NCBI GenBank assembly: GCA_000002435.2
Contig: CM018790.1
DNA length: 64,000 nt
DNA from: Giardia intestinalis
Taxonomy: Eukaryota
Strand: one strand, 5' to 3'
Part shown: positions 11,095 to 64,000 of the stretch, piece after piece
Layout of the letters: each line of letters begins with the position of its first letter
Position numbering within the stretch: position 1 is the stretch's first letter
The notes under the pieces: generated by a model
What the model was told of the DNA's origin: nothing
The model's database searches: none
The model's input: only the letters and a program-made list of their open reading frames with translations
Program-made: the position numbers and the translations under genes

Positions 11095-11095
11095 A

Positions 11096-11102
11096 TTTAC
11101 TG
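11096..11102 (-). promoter_or_regulatory. AGTAAAT polyadenylation-signal motif for the cyclin gene, located between the two convergent stop codons
   Basis: The reverse complement of atttact at 11096-11102 is AGTAAAT, lying 4 nt after the cyclin stop (11106-11108). Confidence 0.5.
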
Positions 11103-11105
11103 AGA

Positions 11106-12315: not shown

Positions 12316-12792
12316 ATGGAAAACCGTTTACGAAATGAGTATCGAAACGTCAACAAAATGAAGGATGCGCTAGCCAAGGAGGGAATAACCATATTTCCTA
12401 CGGCCAGTGACAACCTTTCTGCTTGGACCATTTCTATTCTAACGAAAGATAAGGACTCCCCCTATTCGGGTCAGACGCACACAATCTCTGTCAAGATACC
12501 CAGAGACTACCCCCTTTCTCCGCCCGAGTGCAACTTCACGACACCCATGTTCCACCCTAACGTGAAGTTTGCGAACGGTGAGATCTGTCTCAACATCCTC
12601 ACAAAGGACGACTGGTCTCCGGCAATTTCCCTTATCTCTCTTGCACAAAGCATTGCAGGCCTTTGCAGTGCCCCAAACACAGACAGCCCTCTCAATTGTG
12701 ACGCCTCCAATCTCGTTAAGAACGGTGACGTCCGGGCCGTCCGGTGCATCTGCCAGTATTACTACAAGGGGGAGTACACCAAGGTCAAGTAG
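12316..12792 (+). CDS. ubiquitin-conjugating enzyme E2 (UBC fold), 158 aa
   Basis: Canonical UBC active site HPNVKFANGEICLNILTKDDWSPAISL, matching HPN[IV]..G.ICLDIL...WSP with the catalytic Cys. A/T-rich start (aaccaataaaaagttATG). Stop TAG at 12790-12792 is followed by AGTAAAT at 12801-12807. Confidence 0.9.
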   Translation: MENRLRNEYRNVNKMKDALAKEGITIFPTASDNLSAWTISILTKDKDSPYSGQTHTISVKIPRDYPLSPPECNFTTPMFHPNVKFANGEICLNILTKDDWSPAISLISLAQSIAGLCSAPNTDSPLNCDASNLVKNGDVRAVRCICQYYYKGEYTKVK

Positions 12793-12874
12793 GCCCGGGC
12801 AGTAAATTTGTCGAGATACATGCCTCGGCCGCGCGTCCCCCTGGCGCCCCGCCTCGCAGAGCTCTATGCCGCAG
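12736..12874 (+). repeat. Copy A of a 139-bp perfect inverted repeat, covering the last 19 codons of the E2 gene plus 82 bp of 3' flank including AGTAAAT
   Basis: By eye, base-for-base identical to the reverse complement of 53923-54062. Confidence 0.85.
12801..12807 (+). promoter_or_regulatory. AGTAAAT polyadenylation-signal motif of the E2 gene
   Basis: Consensus AGTRAAY lies 9 nt after the stop codon. Confidence 0.55.
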
Positions 12875-12924
12875 GGACTTCTCGCGTAGGGAAGTGGTGG
12901 AAAACCATGGACCATGTTCACATA

Positions 12925-15900
12925 TTAAACCGCGGCACTACCATCGGATCCTTCCTCTAGCTCTGCCAGTCCCATGGCCTCGTTTGCGTTACGACCGCGG
13001 AAGTTTGCATAAGATATGAGTGCTATGGCAGACCTTTCCCGCCTGCCTCGTCGCTTCGTGGGTATATCGAGAGGATGCTTGGGCTTCTTGTTCTTACAAC
13101 AGAACCGCCACGAGAGGAACCCAATGAGACCTGCAAGCACGCTGAGGACAAGAACTCCGACGACAATTGGAACGTAGGGTTGAATGGCTGTTCTTGCTAC
13201 GTCGGCCTCGCATGCAAAACTGTCCTTTAGTGTGTAACCTGGATAGCATCTACAGACAGGTACTCTCCCATTATCCGAGAGACAACGGCCATGTCCACTG
13301 CAGACCAGGTTAACGCCACCCGTAGTGGATATGCAGTCTTTGTGGACGCATATGCTATCAACGGTGCTCTGATAGTTGTCATTGCATGTACAAACGCCCC
13401 CTTTGACCACCGTACATCGGCCGTTACCGTTGCACACCGTCCCAAGAGTAAGGCACCCTAGGGGGTAGCATACCGTGCCTGACGGCCCCCAGTAGGAATC
13501 GCAGATGCAGTAACCCTTATCTCCTTCCTCTTCAACACACCTGCCAGCCCCGTTGCAAACAACGTCTTCAAAGCCCGGCTCGGAACTGAAGCAATCTTTG
13601 ACATAGCAGGTTCTGGAGCTTCTGTCCCTTGTGTACCCACTCGAACAATTCTCACACTTTTCCCCGTAGTGGCCATTCTTACAGACACACTTCTTCTCTG
13701 CAGAACATACCCCTCCGCTGTGACAAACAGTTTCTGCCCCGTCCGATTCTTGCGTAATGCACTCCGTTGCCACACACGGATACACGACGCCTCGGAAGGT
13801 GATTGTCTTATATCCAGACTTGCATGTGCAGAAATAGCTATCGCCAGACCTTGTACAGCTTCCGTTGCCTCCGCATTCCTCGTACTTATTAAAGTCAATG
13901 AGGCCAGCACACTCCTTAGGAATGCATCTTCCGGTAAAGAGCTGGACAGCAACATCTTTATCACAAGAGCAATAAGACTTATTGCCCACTAGATCCATAA
14001 CGCATGTACCAAACTCATGTCCTCCGCAAACAGTGTCGACGTCGTGACCATTGGCAGACCTTGGGAAGACGCACTCCTGTGGAGCACACTGTCTGCCGAT
14101 TTGCCTGTACTTATTGTCTGTCGTATTTATACATTTGCATATATATCCATTCAGCGCAGTGTTTGGAAGCTCAGAAACTACACAGGAGGCAACAGTCGGG
14201 CCTCCACACACAGACTGGACTGTATGCAAACCGCTTGCTACAGGGACAATGCAGCGCGGGCTGGCACACGTTCCATTGACTGCAAAGTAGCCGATATCAC
14301 AAACACACTTTCCATGCACGCATTCACCGACACCACCACAGATCAGAGGATTCTGATCAACGTAATTGATGCAATCTTCTTGGACGCACGTGCTCTTAAG
14401 GACCCCTGTGATGTCGCGAAGCGTTACTTCGGTAGTGTTGTCTGTGCAGCTACACCTCCTTTCAGAAAGGGGGGTTCCAGCCTGGCCAAAGCAAGTGCCG
14501 AATCCTCCGCACACCTTTGGCTCAGCGAGAGTCGAGTGCACATAGATGCACTTCCTCGGGACACATTGCTCTCCTGTGCTCACAGCGAGAAAGCCTTCGG
14601 AACAAGCACATCCAAACCTCTGCTGCTCCGGTTTGTACACGCAGCCGGCCAGAGCGTCTCCTCCGCAGTACACGTTGTCGCGAAGACAATCTTGGTGGAT
14701 GCATCTCTTATTGAGCAGCGTGAATGGCCCTGAGCAGGCGCATTCGTGGCCACCACCGGCACTCTTCATGCGACACTCGACGAACGGCGAAAGAGCCCCG
14801 CACTCAGAGTATTGCAATTTGCCTCCAACGTACGTCAGAACAGCGCACCCTGTGTGGGTGCAGTAGCCTCCGTAGCTTTCGGTTTCGTCGGGACACTTAC
14901 AGCCATAAGAGTTAGTGGTCTCAGTGTATATGCACGACCCTATTCCAGAACATACGTGGCTCAGTCTGTATTCCCCAGGAATATGATTGCTTGGCAGGCA
15001 ATTCACGCTATAGCAGAAACCGCCTATCTTCACAAAGTTCTTGGAACATATGCACGCGTTTGTTGTAGCATCCAAAGCGCCAGCTCCTGGGCCACCACAA
15101 AATCCTATTGATCTGTGTGCACTTTCATCGGCATACGCAGTCGATAGGACACATGTAGAGACGTAGGTTGTGAGCAGGCCGCTGCATTGGCAACTCCAGT
15201 CGCCGCTTTCCCTCAACAAGCAGCTTTCGCTTCTATTTGTAGCCACATCGTTTGTGACACAATACGTATTGGGCACTATGCTAGGGCCAGCTAAAGTCTT
15301 CTTTAACATGCAAGAGTCTGCGACACAACGCTTACTTGCCGTATCCCATCTTGCCTCGCTGCCACAGTCACAATGGTAGTTTGAGGCACTAGCCTCCTTT
15401 ACGCAATCTCCTATTCCTCCACAATAATTATCTTGCTCACGACCGCTTGAGTTGTCGTGGCAGTCCTTGTGAATGCACGTTGTCTTACCCTTGTTGGGGC
15501 CCGAGGTAAATGTTACAGTGTGGAAGTTGTCCTGACAGGTACACACCTTTCCTGAGGCACCAGATTTGTCTGAACATTTTGGTGCACCACTAGACTCTAT
15601 ACCATCAGAAAGGCCATCATGTAGTCCACAGTAAAAGACCCTAGTCTTATTTATTTGACTGACGTGGGTGCACTCCTCATCAGCGAGGTATGTGTTATTG
15701 TATGCAATTACCCTTGTTGATGTGTCTGACACACACGTAATATATGGGGCGGTTGAGTCGCCAAACACGGTATACTTTGCGTTCTGACAAACACCAGACA
15801 TATCCCCAGTGTTGGCGGGCGTCGGTGATTGTGTAATACAGCTCTTGGCAATGCATTGACTACCTATCATCTCGGCAGTGGGGTTACTTCCCTTTGTATT

Positions 15901-17280
15901 GCATTCAGAGCAGTTTTCTCCAGTGTATATGTGTGAGCATGAGCATAGGAAGCTTGATACTCCACCAACCATGGCTACTTTAAGAACACCATTGTCACTG
16001 CAAACAGCTCCATTAGCAATCAGCTTACTGGGCACACAGCGTCCTGGATATATGTACGTATAGCCTTGTTCGCAGATACACGCACTTTGACTTGTGAGGC
16101 TATTCGAGCATGCGCCATAGCCAGAGCAAATAGTGCCAAAGTGCTCATCAATACAGTCACGCAACACACACTCGCCATGCCTCTCAATAAACGAGTCTGG
16201 ACAGCGGCAGTGATAAGTCCCTTCATACTTAACACACGGGCCACCATTCTTACATATTGACCCATCACTTGACACACAAGTTAGAGGAACACAGCGATTT
16301 TCCACCACCTGCGAGGCCCCCAGTATGCACTTCTCACAAAGAGAGCCGGCTGCAACATCGCCACAATCACAGGAGTAGGACCTGCCATTTCTCTTACAGA
16401 TACCAACTCCGCCGCACACGGTCATAGCTTTGCTATCAGTGCACCCAACGGGGGCGCACTCTCCGTTGATGCTGACCATGTCGGCATCACATTCACATCG
16501 ATACAGGCCAGTTGTCATGACGCATTTGCCAAACCCTCCGCAGATAATCGGAATACCAGAGTGATACGCTACACAACTTGTCGGCACGCACGACTGGCCC
16601 ACATGCGTGCAGTCCTTGTTGCACGCACATCTGAAGTTGTAGTCTCTGCCAGTAGAACCCACGTCTGGTACGCACTCTCCCTTCCCAGAACAGATCTGCC
16701 CGCTTTCATCTATACACGATCGAGGAACACACTTCAGCTCGTCTTTAGTGGATAGGTCAACGGCTGCTGCCTCATTGCACGCAGCGCAAAACTTCCCACT
16801 GTACAGAGAGTAGCACGAACACAAGTAATCATCCGAAGTGGCTATGTGTGCTTTGCCAACATCTTTTAGAACACATCGGCCGCGCCCGTTACAAGGGACA
16901 TTGGAGCTGTGAAGGAGAGTCCCTTGTTCGTAGCAATTCTTCGAGGTGCAAACTCCTTCAAAAGAAACAAACCCTTCTGGACATTGCTCACAGCGGTACG
17001 CACCGTCATAATGAGAGCATTTCATAGAATCATTGCATTCTTTTCCATTGATGAGACAACGATGACTGACCGCAATCTCTAAATTCCCACCCGAAGAGTC
17101 AGCCCCGGTTCGAAGTATCCGGAAACCAGGCTTTGCAGCGTCACAGGCGCTCCCAGACCATCCGCGTTGGCACTGGCAGAAAAGAGATCCGTCTGTCTGC
17201 ACACAATTCCCATGGACACACTCTCTCCCCACTCCACAACTGGCAGATAAGGATAGAGTCAACGTCGTTACCAGAATCAT
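12925..17280 (-). CDS. high-cysteine membrane protein (VSP-like, EGF-like, CxxC/CxC-rich), 1451 aa, type I topology
   Basis: N-terminal signal peptide MILVTTLTLSLSASC. There are dozens of CxxC, CxC and CGG[x]G[x]C modules, for example CGGFGKC, CGGVGIC, CGGIGDC and CGGVGEC. A single C-terminal TM helix, IVVGVLVLSVLAGLIGFLSW, is followed by a basic ~60-aa cytoplasmic tail. The tail is not the CRGKA ending of true VSPs. Confidence 0.85.
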   Translation of the reverse strand: MILVTTLTLSLSASCGVGRECVHGNCVQTDGSLFCQCQRGWSGSACDAAKPGFRILRTGADSSGGNLEIAVSHRCLINGKECNDSMKCSHYDGAYRCEQCPEGFVSFEGVCTSKNCYEQGTLLHSSNVPCNGRGRCVLKDVGKAHIATSDDYLCSCYSLYSGKFCAACNEAAAVDLSTKDELKCVPRSCIDESGQICSGKGECVPDVGSTGRDYNFRCACNKDCTHVGQSCVPTSCVAYHSGIPIICGGFGKCVMTTGLYRCECDADMVSINGECAPVGCTDSKAMTVCGGVGICKRNGRSYSCDCGDVAAGSLCEKCILGASQVVENRCVPLTCVSSDGSICKNGGPCVKYEGTYHCRCPDSFIERHGECVLRDCIDEHFGTICSGYGACSNSLTSQSACICEQGYTYIYPGRCVPSKLIANGAVCSDNGVLKVAMVGGVSSFLCSCSHIYTGENCSECNTKGSNPTAEMIGSQCIAKSCITQSPTPANTGDMSGVCQNAKYTVFGDSTAPYITCVSDTSTRVIAYNNTYLADEECTHVSQINKTRVFYCGLHDGLSDGIESSGAPKCSDKSGASGKVCTCQDNFHTVTFTSGPNKGKTTCIHKDCHDNSSGREQDNYCGGIGDCVKEASASNYHCDCGSEARWDTASKRCVADSCMLKKTLAGPSIVPNTYCVTNDVATNRSESCLLRESGDWSCQCSGLLTTYVSTCVLSTAYADESAHRSIGFCGGPGAGALDATTNACICSKNFVKIGGFCYSVNCLPSNHIPGEYRLSHVCSGIGSCIYTETTNSYGCKCPDETESYGGYCTHTGCAVLTYVGGKLQYSECGALSPFVECRMKSAGGGHECACSGPFTLLNKRCIHQDCLRDNVYCGGDALAGCVYKPEQQRFGCACSEGFLAVSTGEQCVPRKCIYVHSTLAEPKVCGGFGTCFGQAGTPLSERRCSCTDNTTEVTLRDITGVLKSTCVQEDCINYVDQNPLICGGVGECVHGKCVCDIGYFAVNGTCASPRCIVPVASGLHTVQSVCGGPTVASCVVSELPNTALNGYICKCINTTDNKYRQIGRQCAPQECVFPRSANGHDVDTVCGGHEFGTCVMDLVGNKSYCSCDKDVAVQLFTGRCIPKECAGLIDFNKYEECGGNGSCTRSGDSYFCTCKSGYKTITFRGVVYPCVATECITQESDGAETVCHSGGVCSAEKKCVCKNGHYGEKCENCSSGYTRDRSSRTCYVKDCFSSEPGFEDVVCNGAGRCVEEEGDKGYCICDSYWGPSGTVCYPLGCLTLGTVCNGNGRCTVVKGGVCTCNDNYQSTVDSICVHKDCISTTGGVNLVCSGHGRCLSDNGRVPVCRCYPGYTLKDSFACEADVARTAIQPYVPIVVGVLVLSVLAGLIGFLSWRFCCKNKKPKHPLDIPTKRRGRRERSAIALISYANFRGRNANEAMGLAELEEGSDGSAAV

Positions 17281-49524: not shown

Positions 49525-50910
49525 ATGTCTCAGCAGTTCATTCTCGTGGTGGGGGACATCAACATCCCGACAAAAGCCTTCCAAATCCCCATTCAGTTCC
49601 GGGAAATCTTCCACCCCAGGCGCATATCCCATGTGATTCTGACCGGGAACGTTACATCAGCAGGCACTGTCTCGTTTCTCAAGACTATCAAGTCTGATCT
49701 ACACGCAGTTCGAGGACCTTACGATGAGACAAGCTACCCCGACGTGGACACGCGCAACTACTGCGGCTACAACATCTCTGTAATGAATGGAAGCCAATGC
49801 ATGCCGATGGGGGACTCAGCACAGCTTTCTAAGTTTGCAAAGGTATACGACAGCGAGATCATTTGTTCCGGATGTGGCTGGCGCCCGTTCGTTGGAATGG
49901 TTGATAACGTTCTGGTGGTTAAGCCCGGGAGCCTGACTGGCAGTATTAAGGAACATGAGCCCGGTTACGCCGATGACTCATCTTACTGCTTTAGCCAGAG
50001 CTCACAACCAGGAGAGGATGCAAGCTCTCTTACGGACTCTGATGGAATGAAGACATATGTGCCTAACCCATCGAAGGTTTATCCATATGTTCGCTATACC
50101 AGCGAACCGTCGTTTGTCCTACTGGGAGTATCGAAGGGTTCACCACTTGTTAATGTCTTCACATACATCATCCGTGATACCCAGCTGGTTGTCTCATCAT
50201 CGAAGTTTATGGTTCCTAAACTTCATGAACTACCAGAGCCTCAAGTAGAGATGTTTATGCATCACAGATCCTCACAAGAGCAACAGTCACAAGAACCTGT
50301 CGCTTTTGGAGGCCTAGGTAATCCGCCGCAAACAGCACTGCCTCCGTCATCACAGCAGTTTAACCCCTATTCACCTTCTACAATTAATGCACAGATAGGA
50401 GCGCCGTCTCAGGCGTGGCAGGTACCACCGTCCTTCCAAGGTGGAGAGGGTCTGCCGGGCCAGCAGTTTTCTAGTCAGTCATCATGGGCCTCTCAGCAGG
50501 TATCTGCCCCTGCCCCTACCCTAGTGCAGCCTACCCCCATTGCTGCCCCAGTGCAGCCTACCCCCATTGCTGCCCCAGTGCAGCCTACCCCCATTGCTGC
50601 CCCAGTGCAGCCTACCCCCATTGCTGCCCCAGTGCAGCCTGTTGAAGACTCTGCTTCTTCTGTTACTACGTCAGCTGTGTCAGCAGCTCCACCGGCGCCC
50701 ACTAAAGCGAATCCTTATTTGCAAGCTAAGGCGTCTCCTGGCACAAATCCTTACCTTGCTAGCTCTGCTACTAAGCCTGCTAACCCCTATCTTAAGGCAA
50801 CGAATCCTGGCACCTCTCCGACCAGTCCCCCAACAACAAATCCATACCTCAAAATGGCGGGAGGAACGAGTGAAACGTCCCCATATCTTAAGAAGTTTGA
50901 AGATTCTTAG
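49525..50910 (+). CDS. Vps29-like (retromer, calcineurin-like phosphoesterase fold) N-terminal domain with a long Pro/Gln/Ser-rich C-terminal extension containing tandem repeats, 461 aa
   Basis: MSQQFILVVGDINIPTKAFQIPIQFREIFHPRRISHVILTGNV...FLKTIKSDLHAVRGPYDE aligns with human VPS29 [40 protein letters not shown]...YLKTLAGDVHIVRGDFDE. The downstream region NGSQCMPMGD...SEIICSGCG aligns with IHGHQVIPWGD...DILISGHTH but has lost the metal-ligand His residues. The C-terminal half contains (VQPTPIAAP)x4 and NPYL repeats. Confidence 0.65.
   Translation: MSQQFILVVGDINIPTKAFQIPIQFREIFHPRRISHVILTGNVTSAGTVSFLKTIKSDLHAVRGPYDETSYPDVDTRNYCGYNISVMNGSQCMPMGDSAQLSKFAKVYDSEIICSGCGWRPFVGMVDNVLVVKPGSLTGSIKEHEPGYADDSSYCFSQSSQPGEDASSLTDSDGMKTYVPNPSKVYPYVRYTSEPSFVLLGVSKGSPLVNVFTYIIRDTQLVVSSSKFMVPKLHELPEPQVEMFMHHRSSQEQQSQEPVAFGGLGNPPQTALPPSSQQFNPYSPSTINAQIGAPSQAWQVPPSFQGGEGLPGQQFSSQSSWASQQVSAPAPTLVQPTPIAAPVQPTPIAAPVQPTPIAAPVQPTPIAAPVQPVEDSASSVTTSAVSAAPPAPTKANPYLQAKASPGTNPYLASSATKPANPYLKATNPGTSPTSPPTTNPYLKMAGGTSETSPYLKKFEDS
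50524..50640 (+). repeat. perfect 27-bp tandem repeat (gtgcagcctacccccattgctgcccca), 4 copies plus a 9-bp partial, in-frame within the Vps29-like CDS
   Basis: Read directly from the sequence: units at 50524-50550, 50551-50577, 50578-50604 and 50605-50631, with a partial unit at 50632-50640. Encodes VQPTPIAAP x4. Confidence 0.9.
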
Positions 50911-53922: not shown

Positions 53923-54062
53923 CTGCGGCATAGAGCTCTGCGAGGCGGGGCGCCAGGGGGACGCGCGGCCGAGGCATGTATCTCGACAAATTTACTGCCC
54001 GGGCCTACTTGACCTTGGTGTACTCCCCCTTGTAGTAATACTGGCAGATGCACCGGACGGCC
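53923..54062 (-). repeat. Copy B, inverted, of the 139-bp perfect repeat of the E2 3' end and flank
   Basis: Reverse complement of 53923-54062 equals 12736-12874. This also explains the otherwise odd conservation of the antisense ORFs 12439-12921(-) and 53708-54121(+). Confidence 0.85.
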
Positions 54063-54120
54063 AGAAGATTCTGCTGTCTATTAAACGACGCATCGAATTG
54101 CCGGTCAGAGTAGATGTATA
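53923..54120 (-). pseudogene. decayed fragment of an E2 C-terminus (YIYSDRQFDASFNRQQNLL-AVRCICQYYYKGEYTKVK*) lying directly downstream of the 2423-aa gene's stop; its distal 139 bp is identical to the functional E2 3' end
   Basis: On the minus strand, 54120-54063 reads yIYSDRQFDASFNRQQNLL with an in-frame TAA just upstream. Residual similarity to E2 ...CDASNLVKNGDVR continues, followed by the perfect copy of 12736-12874 including stop and AGTAAAT (minus-strand signal at 53990-53996). Confidence 0.6.
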
Positions 54121-54147
54121 GCTTTTAGCTTGCACCCACGCGAGAGC

Positions 54148-57100
54148 TCATCCCAAGGACGCCAAGCGCAGTGCCTGCACCAGTCGAAAGACCATTATAA
54201 CTAGGACAGGATCGTAGCAGCAACCTTTCAGGGACGCGCTGATTGCAAACGGATCGGTAGCGTCGAGATTCCGAAGCTTTGAGAGAATGACATGAAGTGC
54301 AGTGGAGTGGCTCTCACAGCCAAAGCAGCTTGCTGGGCAGAATTGTTCTCCCTTCCGACCTTCAGTGTCGGGGGAAAACGGAACGGCACACGCACGAGTG
54401 GTGAAGTTTCCTGCTCCGAGCATGCCTTCTGTTATGCAAAACGTTCGCAGTGAAAGACCGTTGTTCTGGAGAGCAGAGTAAAAGTCGCACGTGACTGTAT
54501 CGTACGGCTTCGTCTGAGTCACCCGAGGTTCCAGGAAGTAGTTCTGCTCTTCAGCCTGATCATCTTCTTCTACCACCTTCTTAGAGCGTTTTCCTTTCTT
54601 TCCTTTTTTGTGCTTCGCGTTGTACTTTTCGATGTCTTCCACTGCTTTAGTATATTCGGGCGGGTGAGGCTTTGGCGCCGGCTCCTTGATCAGGCCGTAG
54701 ATGGTCTTCGAAAACTCGTGGAGGGTCATGCCCTTGGAAATGAGATTTGTCAGGGCTTGGTCCCGGACGTCGCTTGTCTGTGAGAGTAACTCGGCACGCT
54801 CGTCGCTGGTCATGTAGGCTGTAGAAACAGGCCTTACGGCAAACACCGACGAAACGTCGATCATGCCGCCTTGGCCGTCGTCCACGAGCACGGGGGGCGC
54901 GGGCTTTCCACGAGCGCTGGCAGCAGATTTTGGAGTGGTGAGAGATAGAACGCTTCCTGCTGAAGAAGTCTGCCTGTCGTTCAAAGAATTAGTAGAGGAC
55001 GACGGGGGTAAAGTCATGTCCACGGCAGAAACACTGCATCCCACTACAAAGCATGCAGAATGGTCATATGAAACAGCCTGAATCGGAAAAATGCTCTTCA
55101 AGTATTCGCTCATATATACCTTCAAGTCCGCTACTGCGTTTGCACGGATGTCTACAGTAAGCTTGGTAAACCCGTAGGTGCCTGGGCCGAGAGGTTCCGG
55201 CATTCCCTTTTCAATCTTCTGTTCAACCTTCTTCGGGGGAGGAACAGTTGATCCAGGCTTTTTAGCTTCTTGTTCTAGTCTTTTCTTCTCAGCACGTTCT
55301 CTCTTCCTCTCAGCCTTCTCGTGCTCACGAAGCTCTAGTTCTGAAAGCCAGCCCCTGCTCCTCTTCAGTGACTCGACAAACTTCTCCTCTGTGATCTGGA
55401 ACTGGTTTTGCGGTGGAGGAAGAATTGGCTCATTGGGGAGGCGTCTGTTCCAGGGGCTCGCTCCTATAACCTGAACCAGAGGCATAGTTGAGGCAGAAAG
55501 GTTAACGCATGATAAGACAGCGAGTTGCCGCGCCATCTCTACATCGATATTTCGGTTCTTTGGGCGTAGATTTGCCTGTAGAATATCATGGTCCGATGTG
55601 TGCGAAAGGAAGATTCCAGATCGCGTCAAGGCCGAGAATAGCTCTGTTGTGGAGGGGAAGATCACGTTTCTAAACGCACGCGGGCATCGTATGTGCGCAT
55701 GTGCTTCAAACGTCGACTTGGCCACGGCCAGCTCTGCTGCCTGCCGGGCACGTGCAGCTGCTCCCTTGGTGCGGCTGATATTGCCTAATGATTGCGACAT
55801 TGTCTGAGTAGTTGTAAGGTGGGATATGTTCAGTACGGAGCATAGCTGTTGCTGGGGCAAGTAGTCATTGGCTCGTAAGTTATCGACAAAGTTTGTAAAC
55901 CCTGGGATCTCGGTAAATCCTACTATCTCGTAGCCCTCCGGTAGAATACGTAGATAAAGCAGGATACCGGATGGTAGTGCCAACTTCATCAGCACCGAGT
56001 GCACTACAACACCCGATTGCTTATAAAGGCGGATAGAACGTTCTGTCAATTTTGGCACTGGAATCTTATTGCCAGTTGCTCCCTGGTGGTAGTACGTAAC
56101 CCTTCCTCTGCTGGCAACGTTACTGATGGATGTTAACTGAGCATTCTTGGAGTTCTGTCCATTTTGAGAGGTGATCGAGGCCATAGGACCACGTGCATTC
56201 GATTTTCTGGTATCCATTAAGTCATCACAGTATGAATTACTCAGTCCTGTTTTTGTCAGACTGGCACCGCTTTCAAGCATGCCCGTGGTCGGGTCGTAAA
56301 TATAATTTCCAAGCAAGTCAGCGCATTCATCTATGTTAAGATTGTCCCCTCGGTCTAAGCACGGAGTGAGGCTCCAAGCACGATAGGGAAGTGATGAATA
56401 TTTCAGGGCAACGATTGAAAGGGGGCCTGTTTTCAGCAACTTCACAACAACAGTCCTCTTCTCGGGCTTATAGACGACAGACTGTATGCCATCGACATCC
56501 CATGAATTAATAGCGATATTCCATATGCCAACAAAATACACCCCAAGTAAAGAAGTCTGATCATGTGACAGCATAGCTTTCTGAAGGCTATAGACTGCCT
56601 CTTCTGCAGTAAGAATGCGCGCAACATACAGCTCCGGAGGGAGAACAAACTCAAGTGTTATGGGCTCTATTTGCTCCTTTTGTGGTTCGGGACCACCTGG
56701 TAAAGCCCCTGGAAGTGCATTTGCTGGTGCAGGATCCGACTGTGCTTGGTCGCCTTCTTCCGGTTTGGGGTCCTGGGGCTGTCTATCCCCTTGCTGATCA
56801 TCTCCTGGAGCACTTGGATCTGGATGTTCATCGTCTACATTAAGCGTCTCTTCTAGCTCACCATTTTCATCCAACAGTTCCTTAGTGAGCGTTGACTGAG
56901 TATAGTTAAAGATGTTTGGTATCCAGCTCCATAGAGTCACAGAATCAAATGCCAGGAGAGCAGCTCGCTCTTTAGCAATCTCAGAGCAGCGGAGGATGGT
57001 GCATCCAGGATAAATAGGAATAATTTGCGTGGTTATTGGGTATGGAAGATGCTCGACGTACGTCAGAGTAAAGATCAGATCGCGAGTGTTTGTCTGCCGC

Positions 57101-60100
57101 TTTTTGTTGCGCGGCTTCTTCTGCCCGTCCCGCACAGGTGAAGAGGCGTCGTCATCCACCTCGCCGATTGAGTCATCAAATCGAAAATGTGTATCAGCAT
57201 AATCACGATCAACTGTGTTAGAGACAAGGCGTCTTTCAAGAGAGATAGGCTGGTAGCGCTCTGCATGTGTGGCAACAAACTGTGTGTCATTCTCAGGCAT
57301 GGCCTTGTAGTTTAAGTTTTGTGCTACGTCTGTAAGAAAATCGTGATCTAAGCCGTCTGTCAGCTTAGCTTGATGAGCCTCTTCAACGCTCGTGTGAGTT
57401 AGTGGTAGAACTAGCCAATTATTCGCTTCTGTCAACTGGGGCGGAATACGAATGATGTTAAGGAAGTACATCTCTCCGACAGGAAGTAACTCTGGAATAA
57501 GAGGAGTGTCAGGGGGATCTTCAAAAGCAGCGTCATAGTCGTCCTGAATCCTGTCAGAGGACATTTGGCGTACAATCCTCTCCTTCTTCTTTAGTTCTTC
57601 CTCCGAGAGTTCGTCCTCTTCCAATATGTGCTGCCTGGTAGTAGAGTGATGGACGTTCCGCGACTGGGCCCTGGACTTCTTAAGTACTATCTCAGCACAT
57701 TCAGAGTCGGTGAGATCGGTTTCACTAGATGACATGTCATCTGGGGATGTTATTTTTGCCAGCATGTCCTTCACTGTTTCATCCATGGTTGGAAATGCCG
57801 TTTTGTCTAGCTTGGGACCCTTCTTTGAAGCGGTGTTCGGTCTTGATCCTTCGGCCTCGGGGACAAAAACGGCTGGAAGCAGGCTATTGTTCTTCTCCCA
57901 ATGCAAAATGTCATCTCGTGTGACCATTTCTATTAGAGACGGCCGCTCATCGGCCTTTCCCTTGTCCTTCTTTCCCTTCTTTCCTCGCTTCTTAGCTGCT
58001 TCTGAGATAAGGATCTCTTCTTCGACTATCTTAACGATAAGGTGCCGCATAAGGCAGTTATTTCGCTCATCCTCTGAGATGAGGAGCTCTAACATGCAGA
58101 TATTACGGACGATGAGGTTGATGCAATTTATCTTGAAGAGGTAGGCGATGTTAGTGAGACACATGTCTTTGAGTGTTTCAAGTAGGTTAGTGTGGATGAT
58201 CTTATATAGAGCATGAAGCTTCTGTTTGTGTCCAACTAATGTGCGTATATTAATATGCGTGATTGCTTTCTCTAGCAGTTCCGGGGGGATTGCTAGGTTG
58301 TAGACAGCCAGTGCTTTGTTGAGATCGAACCCCAGCTCTGTAAGCATGGAAAGAGTGTCGGTCATCCACAGATCACTAGAAGCCGTCTCGGTTTCAATGT
58401 AATTGAGCTGACTCTGCTGTGGAACAATTATTTTCGAGATGTACGTGTCAATACAGAATGAAACAATATCTGGATACGCAACGTGTGCAAGAGATGACAT
58501 TGCAGGTCGGTTTTTGTTTAGCTTGGCAGTTTTGGAAAATTCGTACATTCTAAGATTGCGATTGTCAACATACTTCTGAAGCGACATGTATGAGAGCCCC
58601 TCTGCTTTATATCCAACTAGATCAATAGGTGTTACACAAAGCCGCACAGCGACATTGGAGAGGCAGAGACTGTTAGGAAGAACCAGCTTCAAAGCAGGTG
58701 TAAAGCGGACGTTCCTAAAGCGAGGATTCTTTGCTGTATTAATCCAGACATGAAGGGCATGATTCAGGGGCTTCTTCTCCATAAAATTCAGCCTCTTGCC
58801 AAAGTAATAAAGGTACTTATTCACGAGTTCGACAGTTAGCATATTACTACTGAGTGGCTCTAACGCATGCCTAGTAGAACCATGAGACATCGCTTGTAGA
58901 CTTGGGGTAACATTCTTCCTCGTCGTTGACTGGGATTCCTTGTCACCTCTTTCTGTGCTGCTCAGTTGGGCTGCTCTAAACCCACCATCACGAGATTTAG
59001 AAAGCTTGTCCCTAGCAGCAATGCTCTCCCGTGAAACAACCCTACTATTGGGAGTAGAAGTCTCACCAGCCTGCTCTTTCGGAGCTGTCAGATTACTTGC
59101 AACATTCTTCTGAGATGTGCTACTCGTAGGACGGCTTGATGATTTAAGACTTCCGGCAATAGTCGGTCCCAGCTTGATATCGCACGGAGATGCGTTGTCT
59201 GATGCTCTTGTCGGCTCCGCGTCTATCATAGTGCTGCGACAGCCGATATACCTAGTATTGGACGGATCTAAAACGGAAAGGGGTATCGTGCTAATAAACG
59301 TTTCGTCATGCTTAATATCACGCTTTGAGATCTGGGAGAGAATCAGAGGAACATATGGCCCGTGTGCGTTTGCTCTGTTTTGATGGATAATGTCAGTGTT
59401 GGTTATCTTCTTGACAACACCGTCAAAATTAAGCGTCATCTGGTCTTTTGTCCTTGTTGAAGCCTTGCTTCCAGGATGCATCTGGAGAGGAGAATCACTT
59501 GGCGCATTCTCCTGCTCCTGAAGCTTGGCGGCTATGGCGGCGTTATGCGCTTCCAATGCAGAGAGTGAGATCCCACCCTTCGCCTTACTCGGCTTTGGAG
59601 CAGCTTCCTTTATATCGGGATCAAGAATATTATCCCGGTCAGACACGTTGGAGTCCAGATCTTCTGACGCCTTATCTGTTCTGGTATCCGACGACTCTGA
59701 CTCTCCTATATCATCGTACTCCTCGAGAGAGAAGAGATCAGCAGGAGCAGACAGCTTGATCGGCTCAGCTGTCGGCGGGAGGTAGTCATCAGAGTGATCA
59801 AGAAGATACTTGGAGCACATATCGTGCAGTGTAAAGAGAATTGAGCGAAGCTGAACACGCTGGGCTTGAAGCGTAGCTATGTGCGCCAGTTTCTCAAGCT
59901 GGCTTCTTGGGATATATTGCTGATTTTGCATAGTTCGTAAGAGGAGCGTGGGCGTGGTTATGTATGTCATATATTGATCATATTTTGTCGCGTTTTTAAT
60001 ATCTATACCCTTGTCTAGCTGTGCATCAAACTGGACACCGCCCTGGGAAATTTGACCTCCCGGCAAGGGTGAAGTAGACCCAGAAGACGAGCTTCTAATA

Positions 60101-61419
60101 CGAGCTGCAGATGTATCAGTCGTTGTTATTGTCCCACTCTTCATACGGGAAAATCCTCTCTTCTCTTTTTCTGTGAGATTCGGCGGAACGCTGGCCGGAG
60201 TCGGATTAGGAGGCAGAACCCCACAGCTAATCGAGTCAAAATTATAGATTCTGTTATCGCTATACATGATGAAGGACTTGACTTGCTCGTCTGGAAACTC
60301 CTGCTCAGCAACAGCTTCTTGGGTTTTGCCCTTCTTCTTTCCTTTTCCTTGCTTGCCAGCCTCATCACTAGGAGACGCTGTGCGTGTCTTATCCCCGCCT
60401 GGAGATTTCTCCGCCGCCTGTTGTATCTTCTTGGCTGACTGGGCGCGACTTAAATCACCTTGAGCACGTCGTCCCACTGTTATGGGCCTTATGTATGTCT
60501 TTCTGAGGGTAGCATCAACGATATCTGGGAGCGATTGCTTTGGCTGAAAAATAGGTCTAGCAATCAGAGGATTTTGAGGATCATAAAGAGTCGGATCGCA
60601 CAGCTCTTGCTGGGCAGTTTGATCTGTTCCACGATTGCCAGGTACATCTGTCAAAATCAAAGGAATGTCACTCTCATTCGCAGCGTGTTCCTCCTGAGAC
60701 AGTAAAGAGGTGGGGATCAAAGATGGGCTGTCTTGGTGAGCAAGATGGGGCCCAGGACCATCGTGGTCTGGCCTATGGTCCCCATCTTCCAGGGTGCGTG
60801 CCGGCTGATGTTCGCCTAGGTCGTGTGCTGCGTCTTCCTTTCGAAGTTGAGACATTCCAAAATCAGGACTATGTCTAATAGTCTTCTCTAGAGAGGCCAG
60901 GACATTAGAAACTTCACAGGCGATTGCAACGTAGATGTCAAAAAGTGTCGCTTTGTCCTCGATAAAGCGACGTACTGATGAAATGCCGGAGAGGTTTTGC
61001 CGGAGCGAGTGCGTCGTACTATCGGGGTGTATGTGCTTCAAAAGCAGCTCGACCTCTGCGATCAGTATCTCTGTTTGGGCCAGCACGCTTTTCTCAGTGG
61101 AGTTTTTCCCAAGATAAATTTGCCAATTGCGTTCTTGCTCTATTTCTAGCATGTCATCTGCGGCCTGCATCCCACAGGTCTGTAGAAGGTTGAGCATTTC
61201 ATGAGACTCGGCAGCTATCCGCTCCTTTTCCAGGTTATCTGCTTTTTGGATGAAAAGACACACATGATTCCAATATTCAAGAAGCATGTCGCGAATTACC
61301 TGATATCGCTTGAACTCTTCCCGATATATAATCATTTCTTGGCGTTGCTTTTCCTCAAGCGCCTTATTGTACGCCTTTAGCTCTTGCTCCTCGGCAGGGT
61401 CCTTGGGCGGCATTGCCAA
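54148..61419 (-). CDS. giant hypothetical protein, 2423 aa, with N-terminal coiled-coil-like segments, several Lys/Gly basic patches (KKGKKGK) and Asp/Glu-rich tracts
   Basis: Uninterrupted 7.3-kb ORF. Stop TGA at 54145-54147 (minus strand). No recognisable catalytic domain. Confidence 0.75.
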   Translation of the reverse strand: MAMPPKDPAEEQELKAYNKALEEKQRQEMIIYREEFKRYQVIRDMLLEYWNHVCLFIQKADNLEKERIAAESHEMLNLLQTCGMQAADDMLEIEQERNWQIYLGKNSTEKSVLAQTEILIAEVELLLKHIHPDSTTHSLRQNLSGISSVRRFIEDKATLFDIYVAIACEVSNVLASLEKTIRHSPDFGMSQLRKEDAAHDLGEHQPARTLEDGDHRPDHDGPGPHLAHQDSPSLIPTSLLSQEEHAANESDIPLILTDVPGNRGTDQTAQQELCDPTLYDPQNPLIARPIFQPKQSLPDIVDATLRKTYIRPITVGRRAQGDLSRAQSAKKIQQAAEKSPGGDKTRTASPSDEAGKQGKGKKKGKTQEAVAEQEFPDEQVKSFIMYSDNRIYNFDSISCGVLPPNPTPASVPPNLTEKEKRGFSRMKSGTITTTDTSAARIRSSSSGSTSPLPGGQISQGGVQFDAQLDKGIDIKNATKYDQYMTYITTPTLLLRTMQNQQYIPRSQLEKLAHIATLQAQRVQLRSILFTLHDMCSKYLLDHSDDYLPPTAEPIKLSAPADLFSLEEYDDIGESESSDTRTDKASEDLDSNVSDRDNILDPDIKEAAPKPSKAKGGISLSALEAHNAAIAAKLQEQENAPSDSPLQMHPGSKASTRTKDQMTLNFDGVVKKITNTDIIHQNRANAHGPYVPLILSQISKRDIKHDETFISTIPLSVLDPSNTRYIGCRSTMIDAEPTRASDNASPCDIKLGPTIAGSLKSSSRPTSSTSQKNVASNLTAPKEQAGETSTPNSRVVSRESIAARDKLSKSRDGGFRAAQLSSTERGDKESQSTTRKNVTPSLQAMSHGSTRHALEPLSSNMLTVELVNKYLYYFGKRLNFMEKKPLNHALHVWINTAKNPRFRNVRFTPALKLVLPNSLCLSNVAVRLCVTPIDLVGYKAEGLSYMSLQKYVDNRNLRMYEFSKTAKLNKNRPAMSSLAHVAYPDIVSFCIDTYISKIIVPQQSQLNYIETETASSDLWMTDTLSMLTELGFDLNKALAVYNLAIPPELLEKAITHINIRTLVGHKQKLHALYKIIHTNLLETLKDMCLTNIAYLFKINCINLIVRNICMLELLISEDERNNCLMRHLIVKIVEEEILISEAAKKRGKKGKKDKGKADERPSLIEMVTRDDILHWEKNNSLLPAVFVPEAEGSRPNTASKKGPKLDKTAFPTMDETVKDMLAKITSPDDMSSSETDLTDSECAEIVLKKSRAQSRNVHHSTTRQHILEEDELSEEELKKKERIVRQMSSDRIQDDYDAAFEDPPDTPLIPELLPVGEMYFLNIIRIPPQLTEANNWLVLPLTHTSVEEAHQAKLTDGLDHDFLTDVAQNLNYKAMPENDTQFVATHAERYQPISLERRLVSNTVDRDYADTHFRFDDSIGEVDDDASSPVRDGQKKPRNKKRQTNTRDLIFTLTYVEHLPYPITTQIIPIYPGCTILRCSEIAKERAALLAFDSVTLWSWIPNIFNYTQSTLTKELLDENGELEETLNVDDEHPDPSAPGDDQQGDRQPQDPKPEEGDQAQSDPAPANALPGALPGGPEPQKEQIEPITLEFVLPPELYVARILTAEEAVYSLQKAMLSHDQTSLLGVYFVGIWNIAINSWDVDGIQSVVYKPEKRTVVVKLLKTGPLSIVALKYSSLPYRAWSLTPCLDRGDNLNIDECADLLGNYIYDPTTGMLESGASLTKTGLSNSYCDDLMDTRKSNARGPMASITSQNGQNSKNAQLTSISNVASRGRVTYYHQGATGNKIPVPKLTERSIRLYKQSGVVVHSVLMKLALPSGILLYLRILPEGYEIVGFTEIPGFTNFVDNLRANDYLPQQQLCSVLNISHLTTTQTMSQSLGNISRTKGAAARARQAAELAVAKSTFEAHAHIRCPRAFRNVIFPSTTELFSALTRSGIFLSHTSDHDILQANLRPKNRNIDVEMARQLAVLSCVNLSASTMPLVQVIGASPWNRRLPNEPILPPPQNQFQITEEKFVESLKRSRGWLSELELREHEKAERKRERAEKKRLEQEAKKPGSTVPPPKKVEQKIEKGMPEPLGPGTYGFTKLTVDIRANAVADLKVYMSEYLKSIFPIQAVSYDHSACFVVGCSVSAVDMTLPPSSSTNSLNDRQTSSAGSVLSLTTPKSAASARGKPAPPVLVDDGQGGMIDVSSVFAVRPVSTAYMTSDERAELLSQTSDVRDQALTNLISKGMTLHEFSKTIYGLIKEPAPKPHPPEYTKAVEDIEKYNAKHKKGKKGKRSKKVVEEDDQAEEQNYFLEPRVTQTKPYDTVTCDFYSALQNNGLSLRTFCITEGMLGAGNFTTRACAVPFSPDTEGRKGEQFCPASCFGCESHSTALHVILSKLRNLDATDPFAISASLKGCCYDPVLVIMVFRLVQALRLASLG
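54427..54908 (-). repeat. Copy C of an inverted segmental duplication of at least 482 bp (3' coding end of the 2423-aa gene)
   Basis: The reverse complement of 54427-54908 matches 63519-64000. Several 40-80-bp stretches were spot-checked and all were identical. Confidence 0.8.
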
Positions 61420-61505
61420 TCAGATTTTGTTTTTTGATGGATCTTAAGAAAACCCAGGCGCTAACGTTTACAGATGGGTAAAACGAAGACAACTAGCTAA
61501 CTTAA

Positions 61506-63332
61506 TCACTCAGAGGTACCGAAAGATCCCCTCAACTTAGCGTAGGCAAAGTTACAATAGTCGTGGAGGAAAATGAATTGATCTACCGTCTGAACGCAAA
61601 GCGGATTACGCTGTACGCGAAGTATCTCAGTCATTTCAAGAATAGATGGCTTAAAGCTTCGCCAGACCTTTCCTTCTCTTACGTCCTCCTTCTTCACGAA
61701 TTCTTGCCCGGGCTTGAAGTTATTGATGAGCATGTTCGTAATAACGATGCAGATAGCGAAGGTTGAGGAGCGCCCCACGCCAGCGCTACAGTGGATACAC
61801 AAAGGACCCCGATTCTTGTAGCGTAGAGCCTCGACGGAGAACAGAAAGATGATCTCGAAATTATCTGGAATAGAATAGTCTGTCCACAGTCCGTAGTAGT
61901 ATAACTTGCTGTAGTGTACTTCCTTGCTACACTTAATACCTACTTTATATCCGATAAATTGATCTCTGTAGCGCTTCATCGCAACGCAGCCCAGAGTGAT
62001 TTGCTGGTTAATCGTAGTAGTCCGCGAAGCCCCGTCGGGCTGGCTATTTCCTTTCTCTGAAGAGGCAAGCTTTGTACTCCCGGCACGTAGAGGCGAAGAG
62101 AGCAAGTTCACATTTCCGCCGGACAAATTGGTAGAAAGAGGGTCGTCCCCTTCGTCGTCTTCGACCTCTGCAGCATCTATCGGTTCGCTAGAAAATCCTA
62201 TTGCGTCTGATTTTGCTATTGCATCCTCGCTTATAACAGCGTTGATGTGAAGCTTCATTCGCGTGCAGTTCCAGAATAGAGAGTCCTCCGGAATTTCTTC
62301 TTGGACGGTCTTTATATATGCGATGAATTGCTTGAACATTTGCCCAGCACGGGGGTTGTTTGTATCCTGCGCTTTCTGGTACGCATAATGCATATATGAC
62401 CCTGTGACAGAGTCGGTATAAATCGGGTCGTGCTCCTTGCTCTTGTATAACGGCCAGTAGCGGATGGCCTTGGGTCGCTCATCATCAATGAACCTAGTGA
62501 GGTTGGCAATAAAGACCACCTTTAGACGGAATACTACATACCAGAAGTCAGCCATGGACGCGATTGTGGGCGCCTGAGTGATTAGAAATGTGAAGTTGTT
62601 CAGAGAGACAATGTTCCCATTAAAGTAGCGGATCATTAAGTTGGTTCTTGAAAGCCGTAGGTAGATCTGCTCTGTTTCTTGCTCCTCGGGAGAAAGGGCC
62701 TTTGCTGTGCATGGAGTCGGAGGGATAAGTGACATGTCTTCTGGTTGGCGGGGGCTTCCCAACTGGTTTTGCTTTGGCACCACCATGGGAAAGCCACACG
62801 TACGCAATATTGAAGTGCCGGCGGAAGGGCTCTTGGACTCAGTGTTTGCCTCATTGTCGTTGATGTAGCTAATTGACTGTCGATAAGATGACATGTTTGT
62901 AAAGCTGTTACTATCATCTAAAAACGTCCCATTGCTAGCCAAGGAACTATCCGTGCTTTCGTTGGAGACCGTCGAGCTGTTTATCATAAACTTATCCGTA
63001 TAGAGCGCAATTGGCTGGGTGCGCAGATATGGAAAGATGTTGGTGTAGCGGTTTTTAAGGGGAAACCGCGTTGCTAAAACATTATCATAGCGCTGCTTCA
63101 GTGCTCCGAGTCGCACGTTGGTAAGGGTCGCCATGGATGACTCGTAATATTTGTGGGCGTCTTCTAAGTTGTCATATGGAAGCTTTACAAATGCTTCCGC
63201 CCTAAATAGGCTGGATCTAGAGCGTACCGGTTCAGTGTGTTTTGATGGTTCGGGTACAGATATTGAAAGGGGTTTCATAACCCGGCTGAGTCTTCTGCCT
63301 TTTCCCGAGTCCTGAGTCGCTAGCTCAGTCAT
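61506..63332 (-). CDS. classical protein-tyrosine phosphatase (PTP) domain protein, 608 aa
   Basis: PTP motif 1 KNRYTNIFPY and the active-site P-loop IHCSAGVGRSSTF (VHCSAGxGR[ST]G). The catalytic domain occupies the C-terminal half. The N-terminal ~200 aa is Ser/Asn-rich low complexity. Confidence 0.8.
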   Translation of the reverse strand: MTELATQDSGKGRRLSRVMKPLSISVPEPSKHTEPVRSRSSLFRAEAFVKLPYDNLEDAHKYYESSMATLTNVRLGALKQRYDNVLATRFPLKNRYTNIFPYLRTQPIALYTDKFMINSSTVSNESTDSSLASNGTFLDDSNSFTNMSSYRQSISYINDNEANTESKSPSAGTSILRTCGFPMVVPKQNQLGSPRQPEDMSLIPPTPCTAKALSPEEQETEQIYLRLSRTNLMIRYFNGNIVSLNNFTFLITQAPTIASMADFWYVVFRLKVVFIANLTRFIDDERPKAIRYWPLYKSKEHDPIYTDSVTGSYMHYAYQKAQDTNNPRAGQMFKQFIAYIKTVQEEIPEDSLFWNCTRMKLHINAVISEDAIAKSDAIGFSSEPIDAAEVEDDEGDDPLSTNLSGGNVNLLSSPLRAGSTKLASSEKGNSQPDGASRTTTINQQITLGCVAMKRYRDQFIGYKVGIKCSKEVHYSKLYYYGLWTDYSIPDNFEIIFLFSVEALRYKNRGPLCIHCSAGVGRSSTFAICIVITNMLINNFKPGQEFVKKEDVREGKVWRSFKPSILEMTEILRVQRNPLCVQTVDQFIFLHDYCNFAYAKLRGSFGTSE

Positions 63333-63518
63333 AGCTTTTTTTGACTATTGCTAAACATTTTTTGGGAAATACGGTTATAAAAACACCATGATAGTAGGCA
63401 GATAGGGCTAGAAATTCTCGTGTTCTTGGCTACGGTGTTCTTAGAATCGTTGTGGAACTCGCTATATGTAAACTAAACCTTAACAAGGTATTCTATTCAA
63501 AAAAGTACAAACTAATTT

Positions 63519-64000
63519 GAAAGCCCGCGCCCCCCGTGCTCGTGGACGACGGCCAAGGCGGCATGATCGACGTTTCGTCGGTGTTTGCCGTAAGGCCTGT
63601 TTCTACAGCCTACATGACCAGCGACGAGCGCGCCGAGTTACTCTCACAGACAAGCGACGTCCGGGACCAAGCCCTGACAAATCTCATTTCCAAGGGCATG
63701 ACCCTCCACGAGTTTTCGAAGACCATCTACGGCCTGATCAAGGAGCCGGCGCCAAAGCCTCACCCGCCCGAATATACTAAAGCAGTGGAAGACATCGAAA
63801 AGTACAACGCGAAGCACAAAAAAGGAAAGAAAGGAAAACGCTCTAAGAAGGTGGTAGAAGAAGATGATCAGGCTGAAGAGCAGAACTACTTCCTGGAACC
63901 TCGGGTGACTCAGACGAAGCCGTACGATACAGTCACGTGCGACTTTTACTCTGCTCTCCAGAACAACGGTCTTTCACTGCGAACGTTTTGCATAACAGAA
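63519..64000 (+). pseudogene. Copy D: truncated inverted duplicate of the 3' end of the 2423-aa gene. It begins abruptly after an in-frame TGA and runs off the window edge; a possible gene fragment or truncated paralog
   Basis: The + strand translates, in the parental frame, to KPAPPVLVDDGQGGMIDVSSVFAVRPVS...KKGKKGKRSKKVVEEDDQAEEQNYFLEPRVTQ...TFCITE, identical to the C-terminus of the 54148-61419 product. The junction at 63518/63519 follows A/T-rich intergenic DNA. Confidence 0.55.

Follow-up and report, generated by a model that had tools for sequence, protein, structure and literature searches.

The inverted repeat and the genes around it

A stretch of 64,000 nt from Giardia intestinalis (assembly GCA_000002435.2, contig CM018790.1), here called the window and used for all coordinates below, contains a large inverted repeat formed by the 3′-end of a gene that encodes a 2421-aa protein, the giant gene, and a second copy of this sequence that lies beyond the adjacent protein tyrosine phosphatase (PTP) gene and extends past the end of the window at position 64000. 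A repeat search revealed just two inverted pairs of at least 40 nt in the whole window, designated I1 (482 nt) and I2 (140 nt). The arms of I1, at 54427-54908 and 63519-64000, have 482 nt each within the window and are 8610 nt apart. The features of the locus are as follows.

54148 to 61413, minus strand: giant gene, 2421 aa, from the list of open reading frames (ORFs); its last 761 bp, including the stop codon, are inside the left arm
54427 to 54908, minus strand: left arm, the portion with a partner visible in the window; 481/482 complementary to 63519-64000
54796, minus strand, paired with 63631: sole arm-to-arm difference in the window; T in the sense strand of the giant gene, C in the right copy
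54909 to 63518: unique spacer, 8610 bp, comprising the giant-gene 5′ part (6.5 kb), the PTP gene and 186 bp of AT-rich intergenic DNA
61506 to 63332, minus strand: PTP gene (Pfam Y_phosphatase, 2.7e-27)
63333 to 63518: the AT-rich intergenic stretch, 186 bp, designated j, which separates the PTP gene from the right arm and meets this arm, at its right end, in the novel junction
63519 to 64000, plus strand: right arm, R′ ("copy D" of the original prediction), visible portion; predicted to end at ~64504, past the window
63563 to 64000, plus strand: 5′ part of GL50803_16970 (hypothetical protein, 238 aa), a copy of residues 2186-2423 of the giant protein as numbered in a TTG-start ORF

Base-by-base comparison of the I1 arms gave 481 identities in 482 positions, and a 482-nt match at 99.8% cannot have arisen by chance. 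The identity breaks off sharply at the inner edge of the arms, where the next 30 bases match at chance level only. The one difference, 112 nt from this edge, is at the third position of an arginine codon, CGT in the giant gene versus CGC in the right copy, and is synonymous. The original prediction, made from the sequence alone, had proposed this inverted duplication, which is real, and had described every spot-checked stretch of it as identical, which is nearly correct but does not hold at position 54796/63631. It had placed the 5′ 6.5 kb of the giant gene and the PTP gene within a spacer of ~8.6 kb, and the 8610 bp measured here have the same content. Its gene boundaries require correction: the giant gene, read as 2423 aa from a TTG at 61419, starts at ATG 61413 and the resulting length of 2421 aa is called likewise on short-read contigs L001-L003 and in the GS and P15 genomes; the TGA assigned to 63518, ahead of the right copy, is in-frame at 63518-63520 and shares the first two bases of the repeat; and the first in-frame ATG in the right copy is located at 63563, not at ~63551.

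Extent and composition of the arms

Short-read Logan contigs (k = 31) were retrieved via the PTP protein; among their samples, SRR3177919 is whole-genome DNA. The WB-like Logan contig L028 (986 nt) starts exactly at the first base of the repeat and matches the window from 54908 to 53923 at 985 of 986 positions. Its first 482 nt are identical to 63519-64000 (482/482) and it has the C allele of the right copy, whereas contigs L001-L003 have the T allele and are continuous with the 5′ part of the giant gene. The WB arm of ~986 bp consists of 761 bp from the 3′-end of the giant gene (stop codon included), 85 bp of flank and a further 140 bp (54062-53923) that constitute one member of I2. This adds four features to those listed above.

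53923 to 54908, minus strand: left arm, R, 986 bp, as matched by L028; giant-gene 3′-end, 3′ flank and E2-tail copy
54063 to 54147, minus strand: 3′ flank of the giant gene, 85 bp, common to both arms; between the stop codon and the E2-tail copy
53923 to 54062, minus strand: T2, inverted 140-bp copy of the E2 3′-end, the outer part of the arm; 140/140 complementary to 12735-12874
12735 to 12874, plus strand: T1, the source-like E2-tail copy; 58 bp from the end of the E2 coding sequence and the 82 bp that follow it

E2 is the ubiquitin-conjugating enzyme gene at 12316-12792 (Pfam UQ_con, 7.5e-35), and the two members of I2, 12735-12874 and 53923-54062, are 140 nt each, 100% identical and 41048 nt apart.

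The right arm is considered to extend beyond 64000 because of the reach of L028 and because GL50803_16970 and the C-terminus of the giant protein match exactly. The 238-aa product that begins at ATG 63563, when completed with the giant C-terminus, is found verbatim as GL50803_16970 (XP_001708735 / KAE8302354), which is located on the 1,539,535-bp NCBI record and is identical to the last 238 aa of the giant protein. The ORF that the original prediction had left unterminated at the window end is thus an annotated gene. The further expectations that the identity would continue to the stop codon of the giant gene and then into an E2 fragment, and that the duplicated unit is the giant-gene 3′-end plus the E2 tail, agree with the L028 match (54908 to 53923), the identity of the 238-aa product and the composition of L028. 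Two exact-pattern scans of JGI metagenome contigs for the sequence past 64000 gave no match. The arm is 986 bp in WB and 953 bp in assemblage B, as against 943 bp if the sequence to the right of the arm in B-like contigs, designated Y, were unique. This possibility was rejected, as Y is 99% identical to the E2-downstream region of contigs L029-L031.

The repeat in independent read sets and in three assemblages

The commonest short-read contig (L004-L006, with L005 present in at least 20 samples) is 8670 nt in length and runs from 63548 to 54879, covering the spacer and reaching exactly 30 nt (k-1) into each arm. Such end points are the signature of a branch in the assembly graph at both inner edges. 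The corresponding contig from one of these samples, SRR3177919 (whole-genome data, divergent assemblage A genotype), ends at the same two points and has an identity of 99.47% to the window. The duplication is real and mis-assembly is excluded.

The duplication is present in all three of the assemblages examined. In GS (assemblage B), NCBI contig ACGJ01002250 starts within the right arm, and all of the initial 165 nt are complementary to the giant-gene copy located at a distance of 8.6 kb. Both arms are present in P15 (assemblage E) on contig ACVC01000074, and four B-like contigs of separate metagenomic or read-set origin (L010, L012, L013 and L027) have the same AT-rich intergenic stretch followed by the truncated copy. 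Alignment of all copies established that the junction between j and the arm, together with its AT-rich flank, is orthologous in WB, P15, GS and the B-like contigs. The junction in assemblages A and E is ...CAAACTAATTT joined to GAAAGCCCGCG, and in B ...TAAATTAATTTGAAAAGGT joined to CTGCACC, with the edge positioned within 6-7 nt across all lineages. Within a lineage, the arms are near-identical, at 985/986 in WB, 983/984 plus two homopolymer gaps in P15 and 165/165 in GS, whereas, in the same arm sequence, the identity of A to E is only ~90% and that of A/E to B is 78-82%. At third codon positions of the arm, WB and GS have an identity of 0.51-0.58, not above that in the rest of the gene, and the arms are therefore not merely slow-evolving.

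Concerted evolution of the arms

A shared junction in A, B and E, combined with arms that are identical only within a lineage, is indicative of an old duplication. To our knowledge, recurrent gene conversion is the only process that gives concerted evolution between two inverted copies. From these sequence comparisons, we consider it highly probable that the locus is an ancient palindrome with a single origin before the A/B/E split, the arms of which are kept near-identical within each lineage by arm-to-arm gene conversion. The duplication would have arisen once, before assemblages A, B and E diverged, and recurrent intrachromosomal conversion between the inverted arms would then keep the arms alike while the lineages drift 10-22% apart.

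Several further features of the arms can be viewed in this light. The differences between arms are few and lie near the inner edge, 112 nt from it in WB and 33 nt in P15, and identity in B begins 6-7 nt later than in A/E; such a placement fits with the expectation if conversion tracts rarely reach the arm ends. The G+C content at third codon positions (GC3) of the arm codons tops that of every 252-codon window of the giant gene (54148-54906 being the arm codons) in WB, GS and P15, with 0 of 192 windows reaching it, and the values of 0.615, 0.544 and 0.500 for the arm versus 0.477, 0.405 and 0.437 in its remaining codons come from three lineages with shared ancestry and from one region. The raised GC3 is consistent with GC-biased conversion. 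The two E2-tail copies, T1 and T2, are also identical within lineages (140/140 in WB, 123/123 in B) and ~90% identical between lineages, from which it appears that these copies are homogenised with the functional E2 gene within each lineage. No report of the locus, of its concerted evolution across assemblages, or of Giardia inverted repeats with gene conversion was present in the literature searched.

Some observations weigh against the interpretation as an ancient palindrome maintained by conversion. The window covers just 482 bp of the right arm, and the remainder comes from one Logan contig, which may be of DNA or RNA origin, and from protein identity. The identity of the arms in the GS and P15 draft genomes may be partly inflated by read pooling, although arms that differ by more than a few percent would assemble apart, and the three lineages are non-independent as regards the GC3 signal. 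The P15 copy runs 286 nt further into the RanBP1 flank, which does not fit with a 986-bp arm unless this is an artefact, a flipped isomer or a lineage-specific extension. Conversion, moreover, is deduced from the pattern of identities, with no event directly observed. On this P15 contig (L026, 8-1278 versus 9890-11160), the PTP-side copy matches the other arm over ~1265 nt, into the 3′-end of RanBP1, where the contig ends in a low-quality tip.

Orientation of the spacer

Pfam annotation of the spacer identified only the PTP gene and the 5′ part of the giant gene, for which a Pfam search found no domain; the neighbouring genes encode RanBP1 and a kinase, and there is no recombinase and no transposase among the genes so annotated. 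The PTP protein is an exact match to XP_001708736 / KAE8302353 of G. intestinalis WB. A site-specific invertible switch was rejected, as no recombinase is annotated in the spacer or neighbours and the arms are host gene sequence. A DNA transposon with terminal inverted repeats was similarly rejected, there being no transposase domain, and arms that consist of the 3′-end of a conserved host gene together with part of E2.

The giant gene is complete with either arm at its 3′-end, and crossing over between the two would therefore invert the spacer without breaking any gene. Inversion is mechanically plausible and would be tolerated, and flipping should be neutral, with the giant gene, the PTP gene and the truncated copy all remaining. 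An active flip-flop, in which arm crossovers invert the 8.6-kb spacer so that both orientations are found among the four genome copies or among isolates, is a possibility, albeit one that we regard as improbable. Both the giant gene and the PTP gene are intact in either orientation, gene conversion implies frequent arm-arm pairing, and nanopore data have predicted 162 intra-isolate inversions in WB (PMC7048089). The flipped adjacency, with the PTP gene followed by j, the arm and RanBP1, is present in two contigs, namely L011 (B-like, assembled by MEGAHIT), in which PTP-j-arm continues into the RanBP1/kinase flank, and the P15 contig, the left end of which maintains this adjacency for 286 nt past the arm. 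These are hints that are inseparable from artefact, as the assemblies used no reads spanning the 953-986-bp arm and the same data sets give further non-reference repeat paths (L014/L017, L031) that are most simply artefactual. In addition, the 4:1 split of outer flanks among the B-like contigs that leave the arm from j fits with arbitrary traversal, and for the PacBio WB assembly, with split alignment, no structural variation was reported (PMC7000408).

In L014 and L017 (SRR10368409 and SRR10368399), the 140-nt E2 tail links the RanBP1 flank with cyclin and the body of E2, and in L031 (ERZ27287561), E2 and its downstream stretch are joined to genes located beyond the right arm; these paths are either assembly artefacts or recombination isomers. 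Phasing of the spacer orientation from contigs is unreliable, given non-reference repeat paths and no arm-spanning reads, and the single-nucleotide polymorphism in WB, at 112 nt from the inner edge, moves with the spacer in most crossovers and so is uninformative as an orientation marker.

It is rather doubtful that the spacer is a naturally reversible segment with both orientations coexisting among the four genome copies of Giardia or between isolates. If this were true, a flip would swap which arm completes the giant gene and would change the DNA located beyond the arm that adjoins the upstream region of the PTP gene, and the locus could report on, or regulate through, mitotic homologous recombination, in an organism in which recombination and sex are debated.

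The truncated copy GL50803_16970

The right arm adjoins AT-rich intergenic DNA and therefore opens at an internal methionine codon of the giant gene into GL50803_16970. Most probably, it was not selected as a gene in its own right but is a by-product of the duplication, with low-level expression being possible. A possible but disfavoured alternative, which we consider unlikely, is a truncated paralogue that is functional, with transcription from the AT-rich block at the 5′ edge, a free 238-aa C-terminal domain as the product and selection helping to keep the copy. WB and three of the four B-like copies have an intact ORF, the AT-rich block, which directly adjoins the junction, is conserved in all three assemblages, and the C-terminal region has 93-100% amino acid identity in WB versus GS. 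The identity of the arms extends, however, to synonymous sites, which indicates conversion rather than selection, and the ATG is without the AT-rich context of the other 20 genes in the window. The AT content from -20 to -1 of ATG 63563 is 0.25, the lowest of the 21 window genes, for which 60-80% is typical, and the AT-rich block lies ~45 nt upstream of this ATG, at the arm junction. In one B-like metagenome contig (L027, ~450-460), a 7-nt frameshifting deletion that is not present in the other B-like copies splits the 238-codon ORF into 124 and 91 codons. Contigs L001-L003 and L025 pass the giant-gene side of the arm edge unbranched and, if they are RNA-derived, little RNA crosses the junction of j with the arm.

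Database searches also provided no support for a separate domain, with no Pfam match to the 238-aa ORF even at E values up to 1 and only a chance-level match among PDB sequences. A single-sequence AlphaFold model had a mean pLDDT (predicted local distance difference test score) of 39.6, was unusable as evidence of a fold and was not used. No paper on GL50803_16970 was found in the literature searched. The 5′-ends of L001 (1-20) and L003 (1-21) are Illumina adapter sequences fused at window positions 63478 and 63464, respectively, 40-55 nt upstream of the right arm, as would be seen if fragments or transcripts ended at discrete positions close to the AT-rich block of the junction.

Recent duplication and assembly artefact as improbable alternatives

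An identity of 99.8% with one synonymous difference is also what would be seen if the inverted duplication were recent and lineage-specific, with arms identical through youth, as the original prediction implied. This is very improbable. The junction and the orthologous AT-rich flank are shared by A, B and E, with arms that are 78-90% identical between lineages (10-22% apart) and at least 99.8% identical within, and a recent origin would need three independent duplications to the same nucleotide. Contaminated or chimeric GS, P15 and metagenome contigs, through which a recent duplication might be accommodated, are excluded by their mutual divergence. The probability is negligible that, as the original prediction had also raised, the repeat is an assembly artefact, with one copy placed twice or a collapsed repeat mis-joined, for although the repeat runs past the window end and short-read assemblers mishandle the locus (non-reference paths in L011, L014/L017 and L031), both inner junctions are branch points in at least 20 independent read sets, the 2007 and 2020 PacBio-based WB annotations retain GL50803_16970 beside the PTP gene on the 1,539,535-bp record (PMC7000408), and the junction of j with the arm was independently assembled in GS, P15 and four metagenomes.

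Wider structure and proposed origin of the palindrome

In assemblage B, the right arm is followed by the E2-downstream region, with contigs that run from the arm through the E2 tail into Y, the sequence that is 99% identical to L029-L031. On the long B contigs, E2 is followed by ~2.1 kb of non-coding DNA and then by a gene encoding a 4540-aa protein, and L031 departs from the E2-downstream stretch after ~2.05 kb and continues with two genes, of 138 aa and 910 aa. The latter has as its orthologue in WB GL50803_89535 (KAE8302357), which is on the same chromosome and three accessions after GL50803_16970. In WB DNA contigs L036 and L042, the first 30 nt are identical to window positions 15265-15294, and are followed by TAAAAATG into the 138-aa gene and then by GL50803_89535. 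This locates one further feature.

12875 to 15294, plus strand: Y1, E2-downstream stretch inside a 1451-aa gene; apparently duplicated directly just beyond the right arm

Beyond the window, the predicted order in WB is thus the right arm, a direct copy of ~12875-15294, expected at 64505-66924, and the 138-aa gene. The gene for 1451 aa that lies downstream of E2 (12925-17280; weak EGF_2 match) is intact in WB, where its 3′ 2.4 kb are seemingly duplicated past the right end of the window. In assemblage B (L029/L030, 6478-8610), ~2.1 kb of non-coding DNA, with patchy collinear similarity only, replaces this gene.

Inverted copies are present at both ends of the segment containing the PTP and giant genes, and both are made of sequence that adjoins one presumed breakpoint. 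Based on the logic of these junctions and on the staggered-break model (PMC1885836), we infer an origin in two steps. A direct duplication would first bring a copy of the E2 tail, along with the sequence downstream of it, to a position behind the giant gene. The PTP-giant segment would then invert via staggered breaks, with an inverted duplicate of the giant-gene 3′-end and of the initial 123-140 bp of the E2 tail as the result.

Elsewhere in the window, there is a 27-nt tandem repeat at 50489-50650, within a gene that encodes a 461-aa metallophosphoesterase (49525-50910). In Logan contigs L015 and L016, this gene is 81 nt (three units) shorter and encodes 434 aa, consistent with copy-number variation or short-read collapse.

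Comparison with known inverted repeats

Palindromes P1-P8 of the human and ape Y chromosomes, with arms of 9 kb to 1.45 Mb, are reportedly homogenised by intrachromosomal gene conversion, in work ascribed to Rozen et al. in 2003. The Giardia locus resembles these in having inverted arms and a unique spacer, an arm identity far above the divergence between lineages, orthologous boundaries and a raised arm GC content, but differs in that the arms are ~1 kb and contain a gene fragment rather than whole multi-copy genes, with conversion being the probable cause of their identity. Giardia is a tetraploid, binucleate protist and we know of no demonstration of meiosis in this organism. In plastid genomes and the yeast 2-micron plasmid, flip-flop inverted repeats are homogenised by recombination and the spacer is present in two orientations. 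Here, too, the arms are apparently homogenised by recombination and the spacer could exist in both orientations without gene loss; unlike these systems, the Giardia locus is chromosomal and nuclear, there is no dedicated recombinase among the annotated spacer genes, and isomers are only hypothesised.

In Drosophila, inversions with staggered breaks leave inverted duplications at their breakpoints (Ranz et al. 2007, PMC1885836). The PTP-giant segment is likewise flanked by inverted copies of breakpoint-adjoining sequence, with sharp junctions and no transposon, but the Giardia copies have been kept identical long after the event, a putative inversion. Within Giardia, 6.9% of the WB genome is duplicated, and 38 VSP genes are present in duplicated head-to-head or tail-to-tail pairs with a spacing of 2.6-12 kb (Xu et al. 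2020, PMC7000408). Palindromes homogenised by gene conversion are well known elsewhere, as are duplications, including inverted VSP pairs, in Giardia (PMC7000408). The locus described here shares with the VSP pairs the same genome and the inverted duplicates, but, unlike these pairs of complete VSP genes, involves no VSP or multigene family, only a 3′ fragment of the single-copy gene for the 2421-aa protein and a fragment of E2.

Significance

It has long been asked by what means Giardia maintains such similarity among its four genome copies and whether this organism undergoes recombination at all. The presence of this repeat explains breaks and mis-joins in short-read Giardia assemblies at the locus, and why GL50803_16970 is an exact copy of the tail of another gene, and the near-identity of such repeats must not be taken as evidence of recent duplication. 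With long reads or polymerase chain reaction (PCR) products that cross the arms, the locus would become a simple assay for the frequencies of conversion and inversion. As a compact natural record of homologous recombination, a ~1-kb repeat that is at least 99.8% identical within each of three lineages that are 10-22% apart would point to efficient ectopic gene conversion in Giardia over evolutionary time.

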